From: an uncultured Planctomycetota bacterium
Lineage (GTDB): Bacteria > Planctomycetota > Planctomycetia > Isosphaerales > Isosphaeraceae
DNA: 64,000 nt
Reading direction: 5' to 3'
Assembly: GCA_963845755.1 (NCBI GenBank)
Contig: CAWJTV010000024.1
Span: 32,001-96,000, forward strand
Every line of letters begins with the position of its first letter. The first letter of the stretch is position 1. The notes beneath the pieces were generated by a model. The model made no database searches. It saw only the letters and a list, made by a program, of their open reading frames with translations, and was not told the origin of the DNA. Shown in pieces: positions 8,498 through 31,234 of this stretch. The position numbers were made by a program, and so were the translations under genes.

Positions 8498-9587
8498 TCA
8501 GATCGCCGCCGCGATCGCCCGGCCGACCTCCTCGGTCGAACGCGGTGCCCCCCATGTCCCGTGTCCGCGGCCCTTGCTCGCAGATTTGTTCGATCGCGCG
8601 GAGGATCGCGTCATGGGCATCTTGATAGCGCGCCGCCTCCGCGCCGGGTGCCTGGCCGAGGAAGTCGAGCATCATCGCCGCGGACCAGATCTGGCCGATC
8701 GGATTGGCGATGCCCTGGCCGGCGATATCGGGGCGCTGCCATGGACCGGTTCGAACAGCGACGGGAACCGGCGCGTCGGGTTGAGGTTCGCCGAGGGCGC
8801 GATGCCGATCGTCCCGGTGCAGGCGGGGCCCAGGTCGGACAGGATGTCCCCGAACAGGTTGCTCGCGACGACCACATCGAACCAATGGGGGTTGCGGACG
8901 AAGTGCGCCGTCAGGATATCGACGTGGTAGCGGTCAACGCGCACGTCGGGGTATTCGCGCATCATCGCCTCGACCCGCTCGTCCCAGAACGGCATCGAGA
9001 TCGAGATGCCATTGCTCTTGGTGCAACTGGTCAGATGCTTCTTCGGGCGCGACCGCGCCCGCTCGAAGGCGAATCGCAGGATGCGATCGACCCCGGTTCG
9101 CGTGAAGATCGCTTCCTGCACGACGAATTCGCGCTCGGTGCCCGCGAACATCCGGCCGCCGACGGACGAGTATTCGCCCTCGGTGTTCTCTCGGACCACG
9201 AGGAAGTCGATGTCGCCGGGCCTGCGATCGGCCAGCGGGCATGGGACACCGGGCATCAGGCGCACCGGGCGGCAGGTTGACGTACTGATCGAACTCGCGG
9301 CGGAACTGGATCAAGGAGCCCCAGAGCGAGATGTGATCGGGCACTTTCGCCGGCCAGCCGACGGCGCCGTAGAAGATCGCGTCGTGCCGGCCGATCAGCC
9401 CCTTCCAGTCGTCGGGGAGCATGGCGCCGTGCTTCAGGTAATAGTCGCAGCTCGCGAACTCGAAGTGATCGAACGCGAGGTCGAGCTGGAACCGGCGTGC
9501 GGCCTTTTCCAGGACGCGCAATCCCTCGGGAACGACTTCCTTGCCGATGCCGTCACCTGGAATCACGGCGATCCGAAATGATCTCAT
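8498..9587 (-). pseudogene. ttuC: Tartrate/D-malate dehydrogenase (decarboxylating), split by three single-base frameshifts (possibly sequencing errors)
   Basis: MRSFRIAVIPGDGIGKEV..., [51 protein letters not shown]; frameshifts at about 9272, 8730 and 8540; GGAGG RBS. Confidence 0.85.
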
Positions 9588-10020
9588 GGATATTCCTCCG
9601 GAGATGGCGGTGCCGCGCGGAGCCGTCGTGCGGCAGCCCGACGCCTGGTGCAACCACTCTTCATTGCAGGAGGGGGAAGTGATGGCCCGTGATCGGTGGG
9701 CAACACCCACCCGGACGCAGCCGGTGACTTCCGCTCTCCATGCCACGCTCAGTGACCAGGGTAATGCGAGGGCCCGGATGGGGCCAGGCCTCAATCTTCG
9801 GACTCGACCCCACCCCGGCAATCGTTCCTCAGGTTCCTGTTGTCGAAGGAAACCGATCTGGGTTCGTTCCGGCGGACGCGGCCAGTTCAGTACTCCTACG
9901 CCGTCGCGAGCCGTAAAGGTAGCCGACTGTCGAACACACCGGCTTGAAGCCGATGGCGGTTCTTCCCAACAATTCTCGGACAGAGCTCGAACGAACAAAG
10001 CCCGGGATTGCCCTCGGTTT

Positions 10021-10038
10021 TTTCGCAACATTGCGAAA
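10021..10038. promoter_or_regulatory. Perfect palindrome TTTCGCAA-CA-TTGCGAAA, candidate operator
   Basis: 8-2-8 inverted repeat in the divergent intergenic region between the dehydrogenase and the lipoprotein gene. Confidence 0.4.
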
Positions 10039-10322
10039 TGATATGCCTTGACTCATTGGCAGGATGCTATAGCGGGGCCAGACTGATCGGCGATCGGCCC
10101 GCGCGGTGCCACGAGGGATGGAGTGGCCCTGTTGAGTGATCCGCTAACTTTCCAGTAAATGTCACCTCCCGTGACCGACTGTCACGAAATCAGCCGAGCC
10201 GACAGTTTACGCGACTTGGAAATCGTGACCGGATACGAGAAATTGACTCGGGAAAACACCATCTTCGTGCCGATGGGACAACTGCGCATGCCGCATTCGG
10301 CCTTCGACCCGGAGCTTCCCAG

Positions 10323-10754
10323 ATGAGTCGCCTTATCCTCGTCGCCCTCACAACCCTCATCCTGCCGGGCTGTAGCGTGCTGGACCGCGTTGACATGACG
10401 ATTCAGCAACTCGATACGTCGAACCGTCTGCTGTCCAGGACGAACGAGCAGATGGTCTCCATGAATCAGCGGATGCTCGAAACCCAGGCGCTGATGATCG
10501 AGTCCAATCGCCACGTCGTCGAATCCAATCGCCTGGTGGCGGAGAGCATCAAGAACGTCATCCAATCCAACGCTAAAGTCGATAGATCGAATGAGAATAT
10601 GGACAATACAAATGAGAACATGAAAAAGACGCTTGCCGGAATGGCCGAGAGTAACCGGAACGTCACCCGCAGCAATGCGTTGATGACGGAGATGAATGAG
10701 AAGATGGGCGTGATGATCCAGACGATGCAGAAGATTCCGGGATTGAAACCGTAG
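10323..10754 (+). CDS. Coiled-coil lipoprotein with strict heptad Asn repeats
   Basis: Lipobox LPGC after a hydrophobic signal; about 15 heptads [LMV]xx[STM]Nxx. Confidence 0.8.
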   Translation: MSRLILVALTTLILPGCSVLDRVDMTIQQLDTSNRLLSRTNEQMVSMNQRMLETQALMIESNRHVVESNRLVAESIKNVIQSNAKVDRSNENMDNTNENMKKTLAGMAESNRNVTRSNALMTEMNEKMGVMIQTMQKIPGLKP

Positions 10755-10779
10755 ACCGGACTCCACGATTCGAAATACC

Positions 10780-10805
10780 GAGGGCCGGAGCGAACCCCGG
10801 CCCTC
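10780..10805. terminator. Hairpin between convergent genes (probable bidirectional terminator)
   Basis: GAGGGCCGG-loop-CCGGCCCTC, 9-bp stem. Confidence 0.6.
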
Positions 10806-10830
10806 CGTTCAATGTCAGCCAGTTCGCGAT

Positions 10831-11028
10831 CTATGCGGTCGCGTCGTGAATCTTCTTCTTGGCAGCGTCGCCGGCCTCCTCGATCTTATTCCCGGCCTGG
10901 TGGGCCTTGTCCTTAACCCAATCCTTGGCCTCTTCCGCCTTCTCGCCGATCTCATGTCCCACTTCTTTCGCCTTGTCGGCGACTTTGTGGCCGGCGTCCT
11001 TCGCCTTGTCTTTGAATGATTCAGCCAT
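10831..11028 (-). CDS. Small LEA/CsbD-like general stress protein
   Basis: K/D/E/A-rich 11-mer amphipathic repeats (KDKAKDAGHKV, ADKAKEVGHEI, KDKAHQAGNKI); AGGAG RBS; alternative start at 11034. Confidence 0.8.
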   Translation of the reverse strand: MAESFKDKAKDAGHKVADKAKEVGHEIGEKAEEAKDWVKDKAHQAGNKIEEAGDAAKKKIHDATA

Positions 11029-11084
11029 CGTCATCTCCTGACTGTAAGGGTATCCCTGGCGAAACTGGTTCCGTCGGGATAAGG

Positions 11085-11100
11085 AGCAAAGCGCGTGCCG
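11085..11100 (-). promoter_or_regulatory. sigma54 (-24/-12) promoter for the LEA/CsbD-like gene
   Basis: Minus strand reads CGGCACGCGCTTTGCT (GG-N10-GC; matches YGGCACG-N4-TTGCW), about 55 bp upstream of the start. Confidence 0.7.
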
Positions 11101-11390
11101 TTGCGGCTTGGCTCAGCCAATCCCGATCGGTACGCCTGGGGTACTCTCTGATGACTCCTGATCCAACCGAATCGCGGTAAAACGTCGTTCGACTGGAGTA
11201 CACGAAGAGCACCTGGAGCAATTCAATGAGCAGATGGCCGTTCGCGTACAGCGCGGTGAACCGCTCCTCGCGTCGCGAGCCCGCGTCTGATAATCGCAAT
11301 TGTGTTAGGTTGCGTTCGATCGTAGCGAGTATGCCGCCTGTGACCTCGCGACGGTCTTTGGGTCGCTTTCGATGCCTACCAGGAGGGATA

Positions 11391-11428
11391 GGCCTTGCGA
11401 TAGCAGACGGACAAAAACCAACGGTCTA
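11391..11428 (+). repeat. Left terminal inverted repeat
   Basis: GGCCTTGCGATAGCAGACGGACAAAAACCAACGGTCTA. Confidence 0.8.
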
Positions 11429-11711
11429 CCGTGTCCGCTTGTCCAGAAGACGGTGCGCGGCTCCTGCGCCTTCGGTCACGAAAGGCGGAATTGTTGCGCC
11501 TTCCAGCCAACGCTGATGCGTCCGTCGCCGCTGGGCGCGGGCTTGCCTGGCGAGGAATTCGTGGCGTTGCCCCCCGAGTCCGCGAGTCTTCTCGCGGGGC
11601 GAGTGCGCCTTTGTACGCGGAAGGCGCAGCCGGAGCGGGGACGGCGTTAGGCGGGGGCACAGGGAATTATCTCCGGCAAAATCGGCCGGGAAGAATCCCC
11701 GCCGAGACGTC

Positions 11712-11757
11712 TTGCAAATCCCCACTCGTGTAACCATACTAGTTACACGAGTGGGGA
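11712..11757 (+). promoter_or_regulatory. sigma70-like promoter overlapped by an Rrf2-type operator
   Basis: TTGCAA-N17-CATACT; the -10 box lies in the 7-nt loop of a perfect 16-bp inverted repeat TCCCCACTCGTGTAAC/GTTACACGAGTGGGGA containing TGTAA-N9-TTACA. Confidence 0.7.
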
Positions 11758-11804
11758 CGTCCCCACGCCGAATCTCGTGCGAGGCCCCAACCACGGAGAT
11801 GGGC

Positions 11805-12707
11805 ATGAAGCGAGGCGTTTGGCTACTTGGACTGTCGCTGTCACTCGGGATGGCTTCGGCCTCGCCGGGGCAGTTGTTCAAGACTGCGAAGGTCCCTGAG
11901 GGCACGCGAGTGCATCGGAACCTGGAATACGTCAAGGGGGGGCACCAGCGGCAGAAGCTCGATCTCTACGTCCCCGAGAAGGCCGACGGCCCGCTGCCGG
12001 TCATCGTCTGGGTCCATCCCGGTGCCTGGATGTTCGGCGGTAAGGAGGAATGCCCGGCAATCCCCTTCCTCAGCAAGGGGTATGCCGTCGCTAGCATCAA
12101 CCATCGCTACAGCCGGCAGGCCCCGTTCCCGGCCCAAATCGAGGACTGCAAGGCCGCGATTCGCTGGCTGCGGGCTAACGCCAAGACCTACAACCTCGAC
12201 ACCGAACGCTTCGGTGTCTGGGGGGCGTCCTCGGGTGGGCACCTCTCGGCTCTCCTCGGGACCTCGGGCGACGTGAAGAACCTCGAAGGCACCCAAGGCG
12301 AGACGGGTCCGTCGAGCCGGGTTCAGGCGGTCGTCGATTGGTTCGGCCCGACCGACGTTGCAAAGATGGGCGGTATGCATGACGGCAGCGACTCGCCGGA
12401 GTCCCGCCTGCTGGGTGGTCCGGTGCAGGAGAACAAGGACAAGGCCGAGCGGGCGAACCCCATCGCCTACGTCTCGAAGGACGACCCGCCCTTCCTCGTC
12501 ATGCACGGCGACCGCGATAATATGGTGCCCTTCAATCAGAGCGAGTTGCTGTACGAGGCCCTGAAGAAGGCCGGCGTCGATGTGACGTTCAAGCCCGTCA
12601 AGGGGGCCGGGCACGGCACCCGAGAATTCGGCACCGAGGAGAGCATGAAGCTCGTCGAGGACTTCTTCGACAGGCACCTGAAGAAGGGGGCCGGAGCTTC
12701 ACGATAG
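11805..12707 (+). CDS. Secreted alpha/beta hydrolase (BD-FAE/HSL-like esterase)
   Basis: Signal peptide; HPGAW oxyanion motif, GASSGG nucleophile, HGDRDNMV, GAGHG; GGAG RBS. Confidence 0.9.
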   Translation: MKRGVWLLGLSLSLGMASASPGQLFKTAKVPEGTRVHRNLEYVKGGHQRQKLDLYVPEKADGPLPVIVWVHPGAWMFGGKEECPAIPFLSKGYAVASINHRYSRQAPFPAQIEDCKAAIRWLRANAKTYNLDTERFGVWGASSGGHLSALLGTSGDVKNLEGTQGETGPSSRVQAVVDWFGPTDVAKMGGMHDGSDSPESRLLGGPVQENKDKAERANPIAYVSKDDPPFLVMHGDRDNMVPFNQSELLYEALKKAGVDVTFKPVKGAGHGTREFGTEESMKLVEDFFDRHLKKGAGASR

Positions 12708-12741
12708 GCCCGGTCAGGTGATAGGGACCATCGGAGAGGCG

Positions 12742-13176
12742 ATGCTCAGTTCCAAGCTCACCGTCGGAATCCACATCCTGACCCTGCTGGCGTTGACGCC
12801 GGGCCAGGCCCAGACCTCCGAGTACATCGCCGGGAGCGTGAACACGAATCCGGTCGTGATTCGGCGGCTCCTCGGCCTGCTCCGCGAGGCGGGCATCGTC
12901 GAGTCCCAGGGCGGACACGGCGGCGGCTGGCGGCTCGTGCATCCCGCCGAGCGAATCACGCTCCTCGATGTCCTCCGGGCGGTCGAGCCGAAGGGCGACA
13001 CCATCGCCCTGCATCGGGGCGAGCCAAACCCGCTCTGCCCCGTGGGGCGGAACATCCAGGGTGTCCTTACCGGAGTTTATGGCGAGGTTGAGCGACGGAT
13101 GGATGAGCAACTCGCCCGGACGACCATCGCGGGCGTCCTGGGCTCGGTCCACAAGCAGGAGCGGGAACGGGCGTAA
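12742..13176 (+). CDS. Rrf2-family transcriptional repressor, single-Cys YwnA/HypR/SifR-like type
   Basis: TSEYIAGSVNTNPVVIRRLL wHTH, GGHGGGWRL, ITLLDV, PNPLCPVGRNI; only one Cys, so no 3-Cys Fe-S ligand set. Confidence 0.9.
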   Translation: MLSSKLTVGIHILTLLALTPGQAQTSEYIAGSVNTNPVVIRRLLGLLREAGIVESQGGHGGGWRLVHPAERITLLDVLRAVEPKGDTIALHRGEPNPLCPVGRNIQGVLTGVYGEVERRMDEQLARTTIAGVLGSVHKQERERA

Positions 13177-13188
13177 GCCCCTTTTTTT
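13169..13188 (+). terminator. Short intrinsic terminator
   Basis: GGGC-GTAA-GCCC followed by CTTTTTTT. Confidence 0.5.
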
Positions 13189-13195
13189 GCCATCA

Positions 13196-13218
13196 TGTGT
13201 AACAAAAACGGTTGCACA
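13196..13218. promoter_or_regulatory. Second Rrf2-type operator
   Basis: TGTGTAAC-AAAAACG-GTTGCACA (TGTAA-N9-TTGCA), same geometry as the 11719-11757 site. Confidence 0.7.
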
Positions 13219-13244
13219 AGAGAGCCTTTTCAAAGGAGGAGACG

Positions 13245-14105
13245 ATGGGAGCGAGTCGAACCGGATTGGGTCTTGCGGCGATGCTCGTCGCCACGGCGGC
13301 GGCCCTCACGGGGACGGTCCGGGCTCAGGAGGGCAAGGCGGACACCGAGGGCCGCAAGCGGCAGGTGGTCGAGCTGCTCAAGAGCATCGAAACCGGCGAC
13401 GCGAAGCCGGTTGCCGTTATCAACCCGAAGAAGTACATCCAGCACAACCAAGCCGTCGCCGACGGCCTGGAGGGCTTCGGGGCTCTGCTCAAGCAGCTCC
13501 CGCCCAATTCGGCGAAGGTCAAGACCGTGCGAGTGTTCCGCGACGGCGATTTCGTCTTCACGCACACGGATTATGACTTCTTCGGCCCCAAGGTCGGTTT
13601 CGACGTCTTCCGCTTCGAGGACGGGAAGATTGTCGAGCACTGGGACAACCTTGCCGAGAAGGTGAAGCAGCCGAACCGCAGCGGCCACACGCAGACCGAC
13701 GGGCCGACCGAGGCGAAGGACCTCGACAAGACCGATGCCAACAGGACGCTGGTGCGGGCCTTCTACGAAGACATCCTGATGAAGGGCAAGAAGGAGAAGC
13801 TCGCCGACTACTTCGGCGACACGTACATCCAGCACAGCCCCGGCCTGGGTGACGGCGTCGAGGGATTCAGTCGGCTGGTGGGGATGGTCGCTACCCCGAA
13901 CAGCCCCATCAAGTTCGACAAGATTCACAAGGTGCTGGGCGAGGGGGAGTTCGTCCTGGTCATGAGCGAGGGGTCGTTCCGCGGGAAGCCCTCGGCCTTC
14001 TACGACCTGTTCCGGGTCGAGGGTGGCAAGGTCGTCGAGCATTGGGACGCCATCGAGGCCATCCCGCCCAAGTCGGAGCGGAAGAACGACAACGGCAAGT
14101 TCTGA
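13245..14105 (+). CDS. Secreted tandem SnoaL/NTF2-like domain protein
   Basis: Signal peptide; duplicated YIQH..DG / DxFRxExGKxVEHWD; AAGGAGG RBS. Confidence 0.85.
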   Translation: MGASRTGLGLAAMLVATAAALTGTVRAQEGKADTEGRKRQVVELLKSIETGDAKPVAVINPKKYIQHNQAVADGLEGFGALLKQLPPNSAKVKTVRVFRDGDFVFTHTDYDFFGPKVGFDVFRFEDGKIVEHWDNLAEKVKQPNRSGHTQTDGPTEAKDLDKTDANRTLVRAFYEDILMKGKKEKLADYFGDTYIQHSPGLGDGVEGFSRLVGMVATPNSPIKFDKIHKVLGEGEFVLVMSEGSFRGKPSAFYDLFRVEGGKVVEHWDAIEAIPPKSERKNDNGKF

Positions 14106-14155
14106 AGCCCGAATTCCCCTTCCTCTCCCTCGGAGATGCCCGCAATATCGCTCCG

Positions 14156-14214
14156 CCGAAGAGCCTTGCTTATGGCCGCCCTCGTCGCAGCCGGCCATAG
14201 GGAAGGCTCTTCGG
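14156..14214. repeat. Long imperfect hairpin inside the cassette
   Basis: CCGAAGAGCCTT..TATGGCCG-13nt-CGGCCATA..AAGGCTCTTCGG. Confidence 0.7.
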
Positions 14215-14313
14215 ACGGATGTCGGCCAAGGGAACATAAAGGCCGTTCCAGGACGGAGCGTTACCAGTGCGTGATTTGGGGCAGATCGCGCACCGCTGAA
14301 CCGACACTCACCG

Positions 14314-14351
14314 CCGAGTGTTGGTTTTTGTCCGTTTACTATCGCAACCCC
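14314..14351 (-). repeat. Right terminal inverted repeat
   Basis: Minus strand GGGGTTGCGATAGTAAACGGACAAAAACCAACACTCGG (38 bp, starts GGGG like Tn3-family IRs). Confidence 0.8.
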
Positions 14352-14409
14352 GGATACGGAAACACTCCCCCTGCATGGTCGGCCTCGCGACGATGCCGCC
14401 GGTGGCCGA

Positions 14410-14560
14410 GGGTTTCGCGTGACCGACACCGGAGTCGGGATGGCGCCGAGCTCGCTCGCCAGAGCCTTCGACCTCTTCGCCCAAGGCGACCGGACGTTCG
14501 CCCGCTCCGAGGGTGGGCTCACGCTCGTCAAGAGCCTCAATGAGATGCGCGGCGGCGCCG
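14410..14560 (+). pseudogene. Histidine kinase HATPase_c remnant
   Basis: RVTDTGVGM...AFDLFAQGDRTFARSEGGLTLVKSL; G1 and F boxes present, G2 box GLGIGL collapsed to GL; no upstream part. Confidence 0.7.
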
Positions 14561-14649
14561 CCACGGAGAGCGATATTGACGCAGGCCCGGCGGTCGGCGG
14601 GCCATATGATGATGGTCTTCACCGGCCCACCGCGAGGCCGCCTTCGCGC

Positions 14650-17646
14650 TCACGACGGCTCGATCGTTTTACCTCCCGGCGTAATCGTGAACTCCGTGGT
14701 CCCGATGAGGGCGCTGCCCGAGGCGCTGGTCACGCCCGGCAAGACCGTGAGCCGGCCGCCCGTCCGGAACGACTGGGTGCCGGCGAGCTCGAGCGTCACC
14801 GAATCGCTCGCAGGCGTGTACGTGACCGTGAATCTCTTGATCGGATGCACGACGCGATCGAGGCCCCTGTTGACCTTCTTGAACGTGACGGTTCTCAGCT
14901 CGTAATTCCCCGGATTCGACACGGCCGCCGCGCCGAGCGGACCGTTGAAGTCGAGCATGAATCCGACCAGGACCGCCTTGCCGACCGGTCTGCCATTCTT
15001 CTTCAGCTTGCGCTGGAAGACAGGCTGCTCGCCGATGATCATCGCGGGAGACGGTGTCGGTGTCGATTGCGGTAGTACGTTGACCTTGGTGGCTTGGCTG
15101 GCCGCCGTGACGGTTATGGAGGTCGTCGTCTGAGCGCCCGCGATGGCACTGTCGGTCACCGTCAAGGTATAGCCGGTGCCGGGCTCGCTCAGAGTCAGGT
15201 CGGAGAAAGTGGCGACGCCGTTGACGACCGTCACTGTCAGGGTCCCGCCCAGGATTGCGTCGCCCGGGTTGTTCCCCAGGGCGACCGTCACGATGCCGCC
15301 GCTGGCCGCATTCCCCAGGCGGTCCTCGACCTCGACGGTCAGGCCGAAGGGACTGCCGGCGACGACACTCGACGGCGGCTCGGTCTTGATCGTCAACTGG
15401 CTGGGGATCTCATAACCGGCGAGATCGGGAACCAGGAGGTTCGCGACCGGCGTGCCCAGCCCGGAGGCCAGGTCGTAGCCGGGTCCGGCGGGGTCGCCGT
15501 TGTTGCCGTAGAGGATGTCGTGGAAATCGGCGGCGGGGAGCGAGTAGAGCGCGGGCAGGGTCTGGGTGTCGCCGGTCAACGGCGTGCCGCCGGCAAGCAC
15601 CCGACCCTGGTCGGCGATCGCGATCAGGCCGGCCCAGATGGGAGAAGCGGCGCTGGTGCCGGCGTCCCCGAGCCAGCCGACCGCCGACGCCGAGACGGAA
15701 GAGCCGCTGAGCGTGCTCGTGAAAACGTCGTATTCCTGGGCGGCCCCGGAATCCATGGAGACGTCGGGCAGCGCGCGGGCATCGTCGGGATCCATGCTGG
15801 TGGGGACGACGCTGCCCTGCCACGCCGGCTCGGGCTCGACGGCGCTCAGGCCACCCCCGCCACCCCCGCTCGTCCCGCTCTGCGTCCCATCGCCCCAGGC
15901 GACTTCACCCGAGGGGCCGGTCCCCGGGTAGTCGCCGGCCGAGTCGATGACGATCGAGGTACCGCCGACGGAAACAATATTGGGCGAGGCGGCCGGATCG
16001 TTCGCAGCGATCTCGTAACTTCCGTCCTCGTAGATCCCGGAATCGCCCGCCGCGGCGAGGAAGGTAACGCCCGGCGTCGTGAAGTCCGAGTCGAGCGACT
16101 GCTCGTCTATCCCCGACGCGGCCACGGATGACTCGGGCTCGCCGTAACTCAGGGTGACGACCGAGACCCCCGGAAGCTTCGAGGCCTGCTGCATCGCTTC
16201 GATCAGGTTTTCAAAGGAAGCCGTCGGGTTGTTGGGCTCGTAGGCCGCATTGTAAACGATGATCGACGCACCGGGCGCGACCGCGTGCGCCCACTCGACG
16301 TCGAGCGAGGCCTCGCCGACGATGGCGTCGTTCTGCGTGGTAACGCCGTCCTGGTCCACGACCTTGAAGCTCGGAGGAGCCGGGATCCCGAAGAACTGGT
16401 CGAAGGTCGTCAGGTCGGCCCCGAGCGTGGGGTCGACCCCCTCCTCGACGATGGCGATCGTCTGGCCGGAACCGTCGCCGGTGACGGTCGTGCCCCCGGG
16501 CCCCGTGAAGCTGATCTGGTTGATCCCGTAAGCGTCCCGAAGCTGCTCGGGGCTGACCTGGCCGCTGAATAGTGACAGCTCGCCAGCGACGGTATACGTA
16601 TCCGAAGCCGCGTCGGTGACCGCAAGATAATTCGTCCCCCCCACGTCCTGGTAGGTGATCCCGGTCGGAATCTCTTCGGAGTCGCCGAGGGGATCGGCGA
16701 GGAAGGCCGTGAGCGCGGAGTTGATGTGCACAACCCCGGGACCACCGCCATAGAGCGACGAGGTCGTCGTGGCCAGGATGAAGTTGTCCTGCGAATCCAC
16801 CGTGATGCCGGCGCTGTCGATGTCGGGGACGCTCGTCAGGCCGAGCGTCGGGACGAACGGCGCGGGGCTGCTTCCCGTGTCGTAGAAGAGGTTGAATCCG
16901 ACGGGCACGTGGATCGCCGTGGTGGAACCCGCGGGTACGTAGGGCATCGTGGTGAGGACCGTCCCCTGCGAGTCGACGGCAACCCCCTCGGGTGAGGCCG
17001 AGCCTCCATCGCCGGCCGGAGAGGCGACCAGGACGGTGGCGACCCCACCCGATGACCCGTAGGTCAGCCGCATCACAAAATCCCAGTTGTTCGACTCGGC
17101 GGCGATCACGAGCGAATTCTGGTAGACGCCGAAATCGCCGTACGTCGCGCCGGTAAGGCTGATCTGGCCGCTGAGATCGACCGGGGCGTCCGTCTGGACG
17201 TCGAAGACTTTCGACGCATTCACCATGTCGTTCGGCAGATCGTCGTACTGGGAGGACGTTCCGCTGACCGGGTTGAAGACGAAGAGTTGACCGTTGGGCT
17301 GGAGCTCGAGGATGTCGCTGGAGCTCTCGATGGAGGGGAGCGAGGCCGACGAACCGACCGCGGTCAAGGCGCCGGGAAACGCGGATGCGCCGGTCGTGCC
17401 GAATACGCTGGCACTGACCAGGAAGCCGTTGGACGCGACCTCGGCGACCGCCTGCTGCTGGCCCGAGGACCGAGTGGTGCTGTCGTAGCTGACGAAGATG
17501 TCACCGGACGTGTCGAACGTGATACCGGCGATCCCCGGAAACGTCAGACTCAGGACCACTCTTTGCTCGAACTGCTGGAGGCACGGACGAAGCTGCCGGC
17601 CGCGTCGATCGCCACGCGGTCCGGGCGTGCGGGGGTGCGAAGCCAT
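14650..17646 (-). CDS. Secreted S53 (sedolisin-family) peptidase with planctomycete export signal and Ig-like domains
   Basis: N-terminal RRGRQLRPCLQQFEQRVVLS; GSGQTIAIV, EASLDVEW (E-x3-D), AAAGDSG, SVGGT, GTSAASP, GYDLASGLGTP. Confidence 0.9.
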   Translation of the reverse strand: MASHPRTPGPRGDRRGRQLRPCLQQFEQRVVLSLTFPGIAGITFDTSGDIFVSYDSTTRSSGQQQAVAEVASNGFLVSASVFGTTGASAFPGALTAVGSSASLPSIESSSDILELQPNGQLFVFNPVSGTSSQYDDLPNDMVNASKVFDVQTDAPVDLSGQISLTGATYGDFGVYQNSLVIAAESNNWDFVMRLTYGSSGGVATVLVASPAGDGGSASPEGVAVDSQGTVLTTMPYVPAGSTTAIHVPVGFNLFYDTGSSPAPFVPTLGLTSVPDIDSAGITVDSQDNFILATTTSSLYGGGPGVVHINSALTAFLADPLGDSEEIPTGITYQDVGGTNYLAVTDAASDTYTVAGELSLFSGQVSPEQLRDAYGINQISFTGPGGTTVTGDGSGQTIAIVEEGVDPTLGADLTTFDQFFGIPAPPSFKVVDQDGVTTQNDAIVGEASLDVEWAHAVAPGASIIVYNAAYEPNNPTASFENLIEAMQQASKLPGVSVVTLSYGEPESSVAASGIDEQSLDSDFTTPGVTFLAAAGDSGIYEDGSYEIAANDPAASPNIVSVGGTSIVIDSAGDYPGTGPSGEVAWGDGTQSGTSGGGGGGLSAVEPEPAWQGSVVPTSMDPDDARALPDVSMDSGAAQEYDVFTSTLSGSSVSASAVGWLGDAGTSAASPIWAGLIAIADQGRVLAGGTPLTGDTQTLPALYSLPAADFHDILYGNNGDPAGPGYDLASGLGTPVANLLVPDLAGYEIPSQLTIKTEPPSSVVAGSPFGLTVEVEDRLGNAASGGIVTVALGNNPGDAILGGTLTVTVVNGVATFSDLTLSEPGTGYTLTVTDSAIAGAQTTTSITVTAASQATKVNVLPQSTPTPSPAMIIGEQPVFQRKLKKNGRPVGKAVLVGFMLDFNGPLGAAAVSNPGNYELRTVTFKKVNRGLDRVVHPIKRFTVTYTPASDSVTLELAGTQSFRTGGRLTVLPGVTSASGSALIGTTEFTITPGGKTIEPS

Positions 17647-28952: not shown

Positions 28953-29340
28953 TGTGTCTTCTCCAGCTCGTGCGAACGATCGTGCCTCCAGCAACCGATT
29001 CTACCACCTGGGTCGGGCAGCGGGCACTTACCCAAAAGCCGTAAGGAATCTGTTCTAGGGCATTGCTCCCCCCGAACCGTGCACTTATAGTCACGGAAGG
29101 CGCAAAGATTGCGACTTTCGTGATTCAGGCTACTCCGGCGGCATGGGGCGGAGAAGGCCCAGATGCCCGGGAAATTGTGGCTCCCGGCCTGTCGGGGCCC
29201 GTGAGGGCACACGAGGTCGGATCGCGCCTTTCCACGCGGAAGACGCACTAGCCCCGGTCCCGTCGAAGTGAGCGGAGCCGCCCCGCGGCCGATCTCTACT
29301 GCCGGCCGCTGCCCATCACTATTGCCGGGATGTTTTCCTC

Positions 29341-30840
29341 ATGATCAGCACAAAATGGGTCCGCGTCGCCTCGCTATTCCTCGCATGGAACGGCGTCGCG
29401 ATCGTCGTCGCGGCCCGTGGGGCGGACAAGCCGAACATCGTTTTCATCATGGCCGATGACCTCGGCAATGCCGACCTCGGCTATCGCGGCGCCGAGATCA
29501 AGACGCCGAACATCGACAAGCTGGCCACGACAGGAGTCCGTTGCGAGTCCTTCTACGGCATGCCGGTGTGCACCCCCTCGCGGGCCGCGCTGATGACGGG
29601 CCGTTACCCGATCCGTCACGGGCTCCAGACACTCGTGATCTTCCCGAGCCACGGCTACGGTTTGCCGACCGATGAGCGCACCCTGCCCCAAGCCCTGAAG
29701 GCGGCCGGCTACCAGACCTACATGGTCGGCAAGTGGCATCTCGGCCATGCCGACCGGAAATTCTGGCCGCAGAACCGCGGCTTCGACCACTTCTACGGTA
29801 ACCTCGTCGGCGAGGTGGATTACTTCACCAAGGAGCGCGGCGGCCTGATCGACTGGCAGCGCAACGGCGAGTTCCTCAAGGAGGACGGGTACTTCACAAC
29901 CCTCATCGGCAATGAAGCGGTCAGGCTGATCGAGGCCCAGGACCCGGCGAAGCCGTTCTTCCTCTACTTCGCCTCGCTGGCCCCCCACGCGCCCTATCAA
30001 GTGCCCAAGGAGTACAGCGACCGTTACGCCTCCATCCAGGATGAGCAGCGGCGGGCCTACGCCGGCATGATCACGGCGCTGGACGATCAGGTCGGCCGCA
30101 TCGTCGCCGCGCTCGAAAAGAAGGGGTCGCGCCAGGACACGATGATCGTCTTCGCGAGCGACAACGGCGGAGCGACCAGCGCCCTCTTCGCCACGGGCGC
30201 GCGCTCGCCGGAAGACCGCAAGAAGAGCGGGGGCGTCGGCCTGGGAGAGAAGCCGCCCGCCTCGAACGGCCATTTCCGCGGCGGGAAGGGGTCGCTCTAC
30301 GAGGGTGGCGTGCGCGTCCCGGCGTTCGTCAACTGGCCGGGCAAGCTCAAGCCGGGTGTGGTTAATCAACCGGTCCACATGACGGACATCATGCCCACGT
30401 TGCTGGCGCTCGCCGGCGGAAAAGGGGCCGACGATCATCCGTTCGACGGCAAGGACATCTGGGCGACGCTGGCCGAAGGAAAGCACTCGGCTCACGAAGA
30501 GATCCTCGTCAACGTCGAGGCCATCCGGGGCGCCATCCGCAGGGGCGACTGGAAGCTCGTCCGGATGGCCACGTACCCGGGCAAGACGGAGCTGTACAAC
30601 CTCGCCGAGGACCCGGGAGAGAGGAACAACGTCGCCGATCAGCATCCCGAGATCGTCCGCGAGCTGGATGCTCGGCTGGTCGCCTTTGCTCGCGAGATGA
30701 AGCCGAGCGAGTGGATCAAGGCACAGCCCGCCTTCCTCGGCGCCCAGAGTTCCACCCTCTTCGATCCCGATTTCGACATCGAGGACGGCGGGCTTCCGAC
30801 CGAGAAGCCCGCCCTGCCGAAGAACGAGCCGAGGCGATGA
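29341..30840 (+). CDS. Arylsulfatase (S1, formylglycine-dependent; ArsB-like)
   Basis: KPNIVFIMADDLG, CTPSRAALMTGRY, GKWHLG, SDNG, GGKGSLYEGGVRVP; signal peptide. Confidence 0.95.
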   Translation: MISTKWVRVASLFLAWNGVAIVVAARGADKPNIVFIMADDLGNADLGYRGAEIKTPNIDKLATTGVRCESFYGMPVCTPSRAALMTGRYPIRHGLQTLVIFPSHGYGLPTDERTLPQALKAAGYQTYMVGKWHLGHADRKFWPQNRGFDHFYGNLVGEVDYFTKERGGLIDWQRNGEFLKEDGYFTTLIGNEAVRLIEAQDPAKPFFLYFASLAPHAPYQVPKEYSDRYASIQDEQRRAYAGMITALDDQVGRIVAALEKKGSRQDTMIVFASDNGGATSALFATGARSPEDRKKSGGVGLGEKPPASNGHFRGGKGSLYEGGVRVPAFVNWPGKLKPGVVNQPVHMTDIMPTLLALAGGKGADDHPFDGKDIWATLAEGKHSAHEEILVNVEAIRGAIRRGDWKLVRMATYPGKTELYNLAEDPGERNNVADQHPEIVRELDARLVAFAREMKPSEWIKAQPAFLGAQSSTLFDPDFDIEDGGLPTEKPALPKNEPRR

Positions 30841-31234
30841 GGAGCATAGCGGTTTCGCCGTACTCGAGCGAATCACTCCGACCCGCTACCCGACGATCGC
30901 AAGGCCCGGTTCAGATGCACTCGACGCATCGGCATTGGTTCGAAGGCGCGATGATTGCGCCTTTCGTGCCTTTAGACGCAGGAATCGCATAGCATTCGAG
31001 AGATGCTAGGCGACCGATCGCCGCCTCCTGAACGCCACGTCTTCCCAGTTGAGCGAGACCGGTCTAGAGGATTCGGAGGATGCGGCGCGTCTCCTCGTAG
31101 CTCGGTTCCAGCTCCAATTAGTCAGAAAGGGTAGACGCTATCTCTCAGGCTGGCCCGCGACGGCGACGGGCCTGCTATCATGGGGTTGACCGGCGGGCAG
31201 GTCCGCCCGTTCCGTCGAAGGAGCTTCGGATCGC

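Follow-up and report, generated by a model that had tools for sequence, protein, structure and literature searches.

How do three genes come to lie between the ends of a Tn3-family transposon with no transposase or resolvase gene among them? The question is raised by a locus in a 64,000-nucleotide stretch of DNA from an uncultured planctomycete of the family Isosphaeraceae (assembly GCA_963845755.1, contig CAWJTV010000024.1, positions 32,001 to 96,000), hereafter the window. An earlier sequence-only reading of the window had proposed that a non-autonomous Tn3-type cassette, moved in trans, lies at 11386-14356. We found that this element is almost certainly a real Tn3 cassette mobilized in trans. 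The best overall explanation, which we consider probable, is a recently transposed non-autonomous insertion cassette that moved as one unit and was assembled by recombination at a short palindrome, B, in a resolution (res) site near its left end.

The cassette has Tn3-type ends and a known empty site

The element is bounded by 38-bp terminal inverted repeats (IRs) at 11391-11428 (forward strand, GGCC tip) and 14314-14351 (reverse strand, GGGG tip). They are identical at 30 of 38 positions, and at 26 of 28 over positions 5-32, and are the longest inverted repeat within 9000-17000. The pentamer GGATA abuts both ends (11386-11390 and 14352-14356, forward strand). IRs of this length (38-40 bp) and 5-bp target duplications are characteristic of the Tn3 family; a GGGG tip (box A), which the left end lacks, is usual and not defining. 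Between the ends are passenger genes for an esterase, an Rrf2 regulator and a double SnoaL-like protein, each matched to its family. Family searches of the encoded proteins found no transposase or resolvase, which is the makeup of a mobile insertion cassette (MIC). The sequence-only reading had these ends and genes right, including the coordinates, letters, core match and flanking pentamers. Its statement that only three genes lie inside was correct for gene content but overlooked the res site (11465-11628) and a second copy of the core of this site near the right end. These two features can account for the construction of the cassette.

We found the empty site, which the sequence-only reading had suggested looking for, in a soil metagenome. 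Sixteen metagenome runs were listed and four were examined (the other 12, runs with a small share, were unused), and parts of the window that were uncovered in runs X1, X3 and X5 were not counted as absence. In run X2, one 216-nt contig joins position 11385 to position 14352, skipping 2966 bases. Exactly five letters at the junction fit either side; the short side matches over 32 letters, and the long side over 184 with zero substitutions. That is, this junction is the pre-insertion allele with a single GGATA. Because this is a single contig, of depth 4.2 and aligned at 85% likeness, from a run that is possibly the source sample, it shows that the allele exists but not how frequent it is. X2 is the sole source of this allele; no junction-spanning empty site was found among the 41 genomes of GTDB relatives searched. 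The target duplication and the empty allele together imply mobilization in trans.

Autonomous relatives encode the cognate transposase

The IR pattern is present in 29 of 121 genomes of the bacterial family (reversed control, 0), and 12 of 13 exact matches among GTDB genomes are in planctomycetes. Labels of the form L### denote loci of the IR/recombinase family in these relatives and in the window's own genome, whose assembly (G000) is 14.3 Mb and 87.9% complete. L112 encodes an intact 980-aa Tn3 transposase (TnpA) that ends 52 bp before an IR matching the right end of the window element at 35 of 38 positions. The cognate TnpA has domains PF01526 and PF13700 and scores 995 bits with NF033527 (cut-off 500). 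L063 (G027:C18:61878-74864; 12,987 bp) has a tnpA-side end that is identical to the left end of the window element at 35 of 38 positions, a GGATC duplication, DabA/carbonic-anhydrase cargo and a frameshifted tnpA. The window element thus has ends in common with TnpA-encoding elements (L112, L063 and L223). Autonomous elements have the layout end, B', cargo, B, half site, A, gene for a 175-aa tyrosine recombinase, tnpA, end, in which A, the half site and B belong to the res site and B' is the second core. The left end of the window element corresponds to the tnpA-side end and the right end to the cargo-side end. Given the cognate TnpA beside near-identical ends in L112 and L063, and the empty site, the proposal of a non-autonomous cassette moved in trans stands.

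Perfect 5-bp duplications flank five of nine two-ended elements with the window type of IR: the window element, L063, L128 (5,693 bp, TGATC), L223 (GCCTC) and the enzyme-less L069 (TTCTT). This count excludes three IR pairs of other subfamilies that lack a duplication (L004, L005 and L038). The best named relatives of TnpA are actinobacterial (44-51%), and a class-wide TnpA search with a very strict threshold found 3 of 201 genomes, all within the window's own family. A scan of G000 with a profile of the ends gave 13 sites that score at least 24 (best score in a shuffled copy, 22.1), and the same IRs surround other cargo, for example DabA and carbonic anhydrase in L063 and a Ser/Thr kinase-TPR gene in L219. 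The sequence-only reading had named both as things to look for.

Several of these relatives have features of their own. In the 13-kb L063, the genes for DabA, an antiporter-type subunit and carbonic anhydrase form a transposon-borne module for inorganic-carbon uptake. L219 (G000:C33:404562-408466) is a sister cassette in the window's own genome, with an enzyme-less res arm, a kinase-TPR gene in two frames, B' and an end. Miniatures or solo ends of other Tn3 subfamilies, some of them GGCC-tipped, are at G000:C24:214518-214812, C26:172881-173146, C6:62855 and C40:91228. The ends of L201, L202 and L210 are nested, with an outer GGGG 38-bp IR ~50 bp beyond an older IR-like sequence.

The cassette retains the res site of a small tyrosine recombinase

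The region from 11465 to 11628 matches DNA upstream of the gene for the 175-aa tyrosine recombinase. In L112, L063, L128, L200 and L223 this gene is upstream of and colinear with tnpA, and the site is upstream of the recombinase gene. In the window the site has three parts, all on the forward strand. A 25-bp palindrome, A (11465-11489), is ~19 nt upstream of the recombinase start in relatives and is a putative accessory or operator site. A half site (11494-11504) repeats an arm of A and may also be accessory. A second 25-bp palindrome, B (11604-11628), has 9-bp arms and a 7-bp spacer and is the putative crossover core. In the 75 distinct recombinase loci that had sufficient upstream sequence, A was present in 49, B in 59 and both in 45, and the shuffle background was 4.4% for A and 0.3% for B; the cargo-side half of B belonged to the search pattern, and to that extent the conservation of B is by construction and counts for less.

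The recombinase family is uniform in size. At E 1e-30 we found 2437 proteins within 96-307 aa and 3 matches above 307 aa, and 91 of the best 120 relatives are exactly 175 aa. The recombinase retains R40, K64/K73, H124, R127, H150 and Y159. Its best solved relatives are archaeal XerA proteins, and it aligns only to residues 103-273 of XerA. The predicted fold is one catalytic domain (pLDDT 84; TM 0.76 over the query and 0.52 over XerA). FimB and FimE are exceptions to the two-domain rule of simple tyrosine recombinases. Such enzymes usually carry a core-binding domain and a catalytic domain (PMC8138268, section 7).

The same recombinase also precedes more distant Tn3 transposases and parA-like genes (by eye), and it is present on 5 plasmid records. 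That is, it is not tied to one TnpA, which fits a general resolvase. Relatives at L283, L286, L296 and L298 and on the plasmid records are 53-69% identical and keep the layout of A, half site and B, before parA-like genes or on endosymbiont plasmids. This suggests that the parA-associated and plasmid relatives may be plasmid multimer resolvases. One metagenomic protein, P0122, has the recombinase fused to a protein kinase domain. In the part of the literature that was covered, we found no description of such a recombinase or of cargo between duplicated cores.

Ancestry of the cassette switches at B

We compared the sequences on each side of B to those of the related loci. Over the 100 nt before B, identity is 70, 66 and 62% to the enzyme-less arms of L069, L219 and L068, respectively, and 52-57% to six autonomous-type arms (baseline before B: mean 53, 95th percentile 59). 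Over the 50 nt after B, identity is 86% to the autonomous-type L112 and L200, and 44-50% to the L069, L219 and L068 arms (baseline after B: 50). The same breakpoint was found in metagenome run X1. Pieces of the cargo over 11617-14103 are present in this run and are mostly 98-99% alike, and an X1 contig departs from the window at 11617, which is position 14 of B, and continues with 274 unlike letters. Three further pairs of loci start matching at position 14 of B, and others start at its edge.

Turnover at this point is general in the family. Averaged by column over 31 close loci, identity is 0.45-0.91 through the end of B and 0.24-0.37 beyond it. Among 58 distinct sites, there are 75 pairs whose arms are at least 80% alike, and in 68 of these the sequence beyond B is unrelated. 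Four pairs have the cargo in common but not the arm. The pairs in these comparisons are not independent, which lessens the weight of the counts. Based on these comparisons we infer that the cassette was likely assembled by crossover at B, with the res site retained.

A second core bounds the cargo

The second core palindrome, B' (14268-14292, forward strand), is in direct orientation relative to B and lies 59 bp inside the right end. Cargo-side ends have 84 bp in common, consisting of the IR, 21 bp and this B-like palindrome, and across 33 ends identity falls from 0.40-0.87 to 0.25-0.30 directly past B'. Using a strict pattern on 32 loci, the window among them, we found B' beyond B in direct orientation in 11 and in inverted orientation in none. 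End-like DNA lies outside B' in nine of the 11 matches.

There are also forms without cargo. A single core is present 59 bp from the end in 434-437-bp miniatures (L115/L164) and, in another subfamily, in L210; L065 and L115 are the miniature elements of this size with the IR of the window family. L201, from the genome that also holds L210, carries a kinase gene flanked by B and B'. In addition, one kinase-cargo leader recurs after B' in combination with three different end types. Between L068 and L219, 23 of 25 letters of the leader are identical, but only 28 of the outer 59 nt. Because the cargo-free forms have a single core at the position of B', the filled and empty forms differ as expected from one recombination between direct cores. 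Cargo that lies between direct copies, B and B', could be excised or inserted as a unit. We suggest, tentatively, that B and B' may be a working pair for the exchange or capture of cargo.

Other loci have traces that resemble this arrangement. At G000:C11:1293302-1293415, beside an end that belongs to a sister subfamily, two cores are separated by only 64 bp, which match the kinase-cargo leader. The join is at a TGCG-like spot, as if cargo had been excised at a look-alike half site. A search for a native donor locus with a pseudo-site gave one weak candidate only, on G000 C34. The window itself contains a relic of the same system (29056-29247 and 29341-30837), in which a stop follows the opening codons of the recombinase gene; palindrome A is at 29080-29104 and palindrome B at 29223-29247. 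A sulfatase gene, probable cargo, follows B, there are no clear IRs, and part of an enzyme-less res arm is near 30900-30985 on the minus strand.

Proposed origin and alternative explanations

In the model that we favor, a helper transposon would supply TnpA, generating a cointegrate and the GGATA duplication. The small tyrosine recombinase of the helper would then resolve the cointegrate at B; A and the half site would serve as accessory sites, in the way that TnpI acts at its internal recombination site (IRS). An enzyme-less end module (IR, A, half site and B) is widespread in the element family, and a crossover in B would have joined such a module to the cargo arm of an autonomous-type element. 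Judging from this mosaic ancestry, the cassette does not appear to be the product of one plain deletion. Less firmly, the same enzyme may excise cargo or bring it in as a unit. It is possible, though we would not yet favor it, that this is a branch of Tn3 in which a bare 175-aa catalytic-domain resolvase with loose site specificity acts as a cargo exchanger, by excision of circles, insertion into a single core and capture from the chromosome at look-alike half sites.

Several observations weigh against this model or parts of it. Four of the nine two-ended elements have no perfect duplication (none at all in L064, L065 and L219, four letters in L115). The cognate tnpA that the sequence-only reading had suggested looking for in the window's own genome did not turn up; neither an intact helper tnpA nor an intact recombinase gene was found in this 87.9% complete assembly. 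PF01526 matched one 56-residue piece with a stop, the L112 TnpA as query gave no match, and the best recombinase match is truncated (63% over residues 1-117). No other transposase family is adjacent to the own-genome ends in the open reading frame listing, judged by eye. With respect to exchange between B and B', the two spacers agree at two of seven letters and differ at five, and most tyrosine recombinases are intolerant of this, although IntDOT is described as tolerating spacer mismatch, one or two matching bases being enough for it (PMC2817482). There is no strict-pattern B' in 21 of the 32 loci, and no end-like DNA outside B' in two of the 11 matches. We saw no cargo circle or circle junction, and among the 32 loci no multi-cargo array between cores without transposon ends; L243 is two whole elements in tandem. 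Last, the edges of the cargo can be in common despite different inner genes, over ~45 nt after B with L112/L200 and ~40 nt before B' with L113/L072, indicating that some cargo changes inside the interval by other routes.

These observations might be explained if the element were a plain MIC, an ordinary deletion derivative in which B is the point of cointegrate resolution with occasional swaps, B' is a regulatory binding site and cargo arrives by unrelated routes. There is precedent: Tn5401 has a copy of a TnpI binding site (DR2) near each end, these resolvase sites near the ends are not crossover points, and Tn3 members have been described as exchanging at res (all in the cited part of PMC7157771). 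An insertion sequence adjoins B in L223, and the unlike spacers and the common cargo edges fit as well. We nevertheless think this explanation unlikely. B' is a full two-armed palindrome that is always direct (11 versus 0), cargo-free forms in two subfamilies have one core exactly at the position of B', one kinase-cargo leader is found past B' with three end types, and turnover directly after B is very high.

The sequence-only reading had also suggested that the GGCC left tip immobilizes the element, which would make it a relic frozen by mutation. TnpA of Tn4430 contacts a conserved 5'-GGGGT box A, G4 included (cited part of PMC9579193), and the lack of a helper in the assembly is consistent with immobility. 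However, among 52 distinct ends, found with a pattern that admitted both GGCC and GGGG tips, GGCC is the commonest (35, versus 14 GGGG and 3 other), and it is present on three of six tnpA-side ends. All five perfectly duplicated elements bear at least one GGCC tip, including the tnpA-side end of L063 and both ends of L223, and the insertion in the window is polymorphic relative to a near-identical empty allele. Other non-GGGG tips are known, such as GAGGG in TnXax1 (cited part of PMC4337579). GGCC, being the commonest tip and occurring on duplication-flanked elements, is thus a family trait and not damage; the suggestion does not hold, and a frozen relic is very improbable. We give as little credence to a TIME-COMP, in which two inverted-repeat miniature elements derived from Tn3 (TIMEs) flank chromosomal genes. 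TIME-COMPs are described as mobilizing the DNA between them (PMC4133298 and PMC13367494, cited parts), and 434-437-bp miniatures of the same IR family, L065 and L115, do exist. The window element, however, has one IR per end and none inside, and so does not consist of two complete miniatures around its genes.

Cargo genes and insertion locus

The three cargo genes are on the forward strand. The first (11805-12707) encodes a BD-FAE family alpha/beta-hydrolase esterase (PF20434, E 6.4e-74) with, by eye, a signal-peptide-like N terminus. The second (12742-13176) encodes an Rrf2 repressor of the YwnA/SifR type (PF02082, E 3e-33), and the third (13245-14105) a double SnoaL-like protein (PF12680, SnoaL_2, in two stretches), also with a signal-peptide-like N terminus. 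The closest solved structure to the Rrf2 regulator is Bacillus subtilis YwnA (1XD7, E 1.6e-26), and the regulator keeps a single CPV cysteine, the quinone sensor in SifR. The SifR/HypR operator is TGTAA-N9-TTACA (cited part of PMC9218516). This sequence is present at 11729-11747, its only exact match in the 14.3-Mb assembly, and is a putative Rrf2 binding site. A second operator with one mismatch is upstream of the SnoaL gene (13198-13216) and is weaker, with 27 one-mismatch sites genome-wide. The cargo is probably a self-regulated unit inducible by electrophiles or oxidants, with a predicted release of the Rrf2 repressor by quinones or oxidants.

A promoter scan of the cassette found nothing. 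A hairpin with 23-bp arms and no T tail follows the last cargo gene (14156-14214), and the terminator scan did not call it. Decayed paralogues in the own genome, on G000 C19, consist of an esterase piece and an Rrf2 gene (86%), without B sites. Among the 13 cargos examined, five are Ser/Thr kinases with TPR or WD40 repeats; the others include a STAND NTPase, DabA with carbonic anhydrase, redox enzymes and unnamed genes.

The insertion target is in a stretch of gene fragments, so no gene was broken. The insertion point is within ~2 nt of an older junction between two unrelated fragments (11345-11390 and 14358-14416), by eye TolB-like and ABC substrate-binding-like, with paralogues at G000 C5 and C24. 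This junction is already present in the empty allele. Across the family there is some target bias, with A at -4 in 15 of 22 cargo-side ends and G at -1 in only 1 of 48 ends overall, and the flanks of cargo-side ends lean toward xAyTC-like pentamers. Several flanks that are alike between elements represent one insertion inherited. We considered a fixed target site and rejected it, since the flanks are biased but have no longer target in common. A shared TACTC(G) duplication is noted in the cited part of the Xanthomonas MIC paper (PMC4337579).

Significance and comparison with known systems

The cassette is a clean case, with a known empty site, of what gene-based annotation misses. Apart from integrons and nested insertions, the routes by which Tn3 elements acquire passengers have been poorly explained so far, and a duplicated core around the cargo offers a testable mechanism that involves three short DNA sites and one 175-aa protein. 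If it works, a recombinase with only a catalytic domain also bears on the role of the core-binding domain. If the recombinase does act as a cargo exchanger, it would be a fourth type of Tn3 resolvase and part of a gene-capture platform distinct from integrons. With five kinases among 13 cargos, such a platform could be a route by which Ser/Thr kinase genes, among others, spread in planctomycetes.

Integrons also have a tyrosine recombinase beside a site at which passenger DNA changes, and in this they resemble the present family. Unlike integrons, the family has no IntI (TIGR02249 78 bits, far below the cut-off of 265) and no multi-cassette arrays among the 32 loci; hairpins of the attC type did not come to notice either, though no search was aimed at them.

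The comparisons with transposons that follow are with the cited parts of the papers. The cassette is most like the TnXax1 MICs of Xanthomonas (PMC4337579), in which passengers lie between Tn3-family IRs with no transposase, with a 5-bp duplication and non-GGGG tips, and a transposase is needed in trans. The window cassette differs in keeping a full res site and a second core, its IRs are 38 bp, and its parent uses a single small tyrosine recombinase and not TnpS plus TnpT. The autonomous relatives are like Tn4430 and Tn5401 (PMC2847244 and PMC7157771) in having a tyrosine resolvase gene that is colinear with tnpA and immediately precedes it, and an upstream recombination site with a core and accessory sites; Tn5401 also has extra binding sites near its ends. 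TnpI is a full-length enzyme with core-binding and catalytic domains. The enzyme here, in contrast, is 175 aa with the catalytic domain only, and its HxxR histidine is at position 124, versus His234 in TnpI (PMC2847244, as we read its context). The IRS is 116 bp, with a core (IR1-IR2) and two direct accessory repeats (DR1 and DR2), whereas the site here is ~165 bp and has an inverted pair (A), one half site and the core. Unlike in Tn5401, the copy near the end has the complete core palindrome and marks a boundary of the cargo.

Non-autonomous Tn3 derivatives that keep res are known among the TIMEs (IS101, TIME244 and TIME-RES; PMC4133298 and PMC13367494), and the 434-437-bp elements are their counterpart. 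Those elements use the res sites of serine resolvases, and the cargo of a TIME-COMP is between two whole elements, not between two cores in one. Homology between relatives also breaks at the crossover site in the exchange at res site I of TnTsp1 and Tn5501 (PMC7157771, Fig. 6). In that case arms are swapped by a single crossover, whereas the additional core close to the end of the present elements could turn the cargo into an excisable unit. Three types of Tn3 resolvase are described, TnpR, TnpI and TnpS plus TnpT (PMC7157771), and the present resolvase fits none of them in size or site layout.

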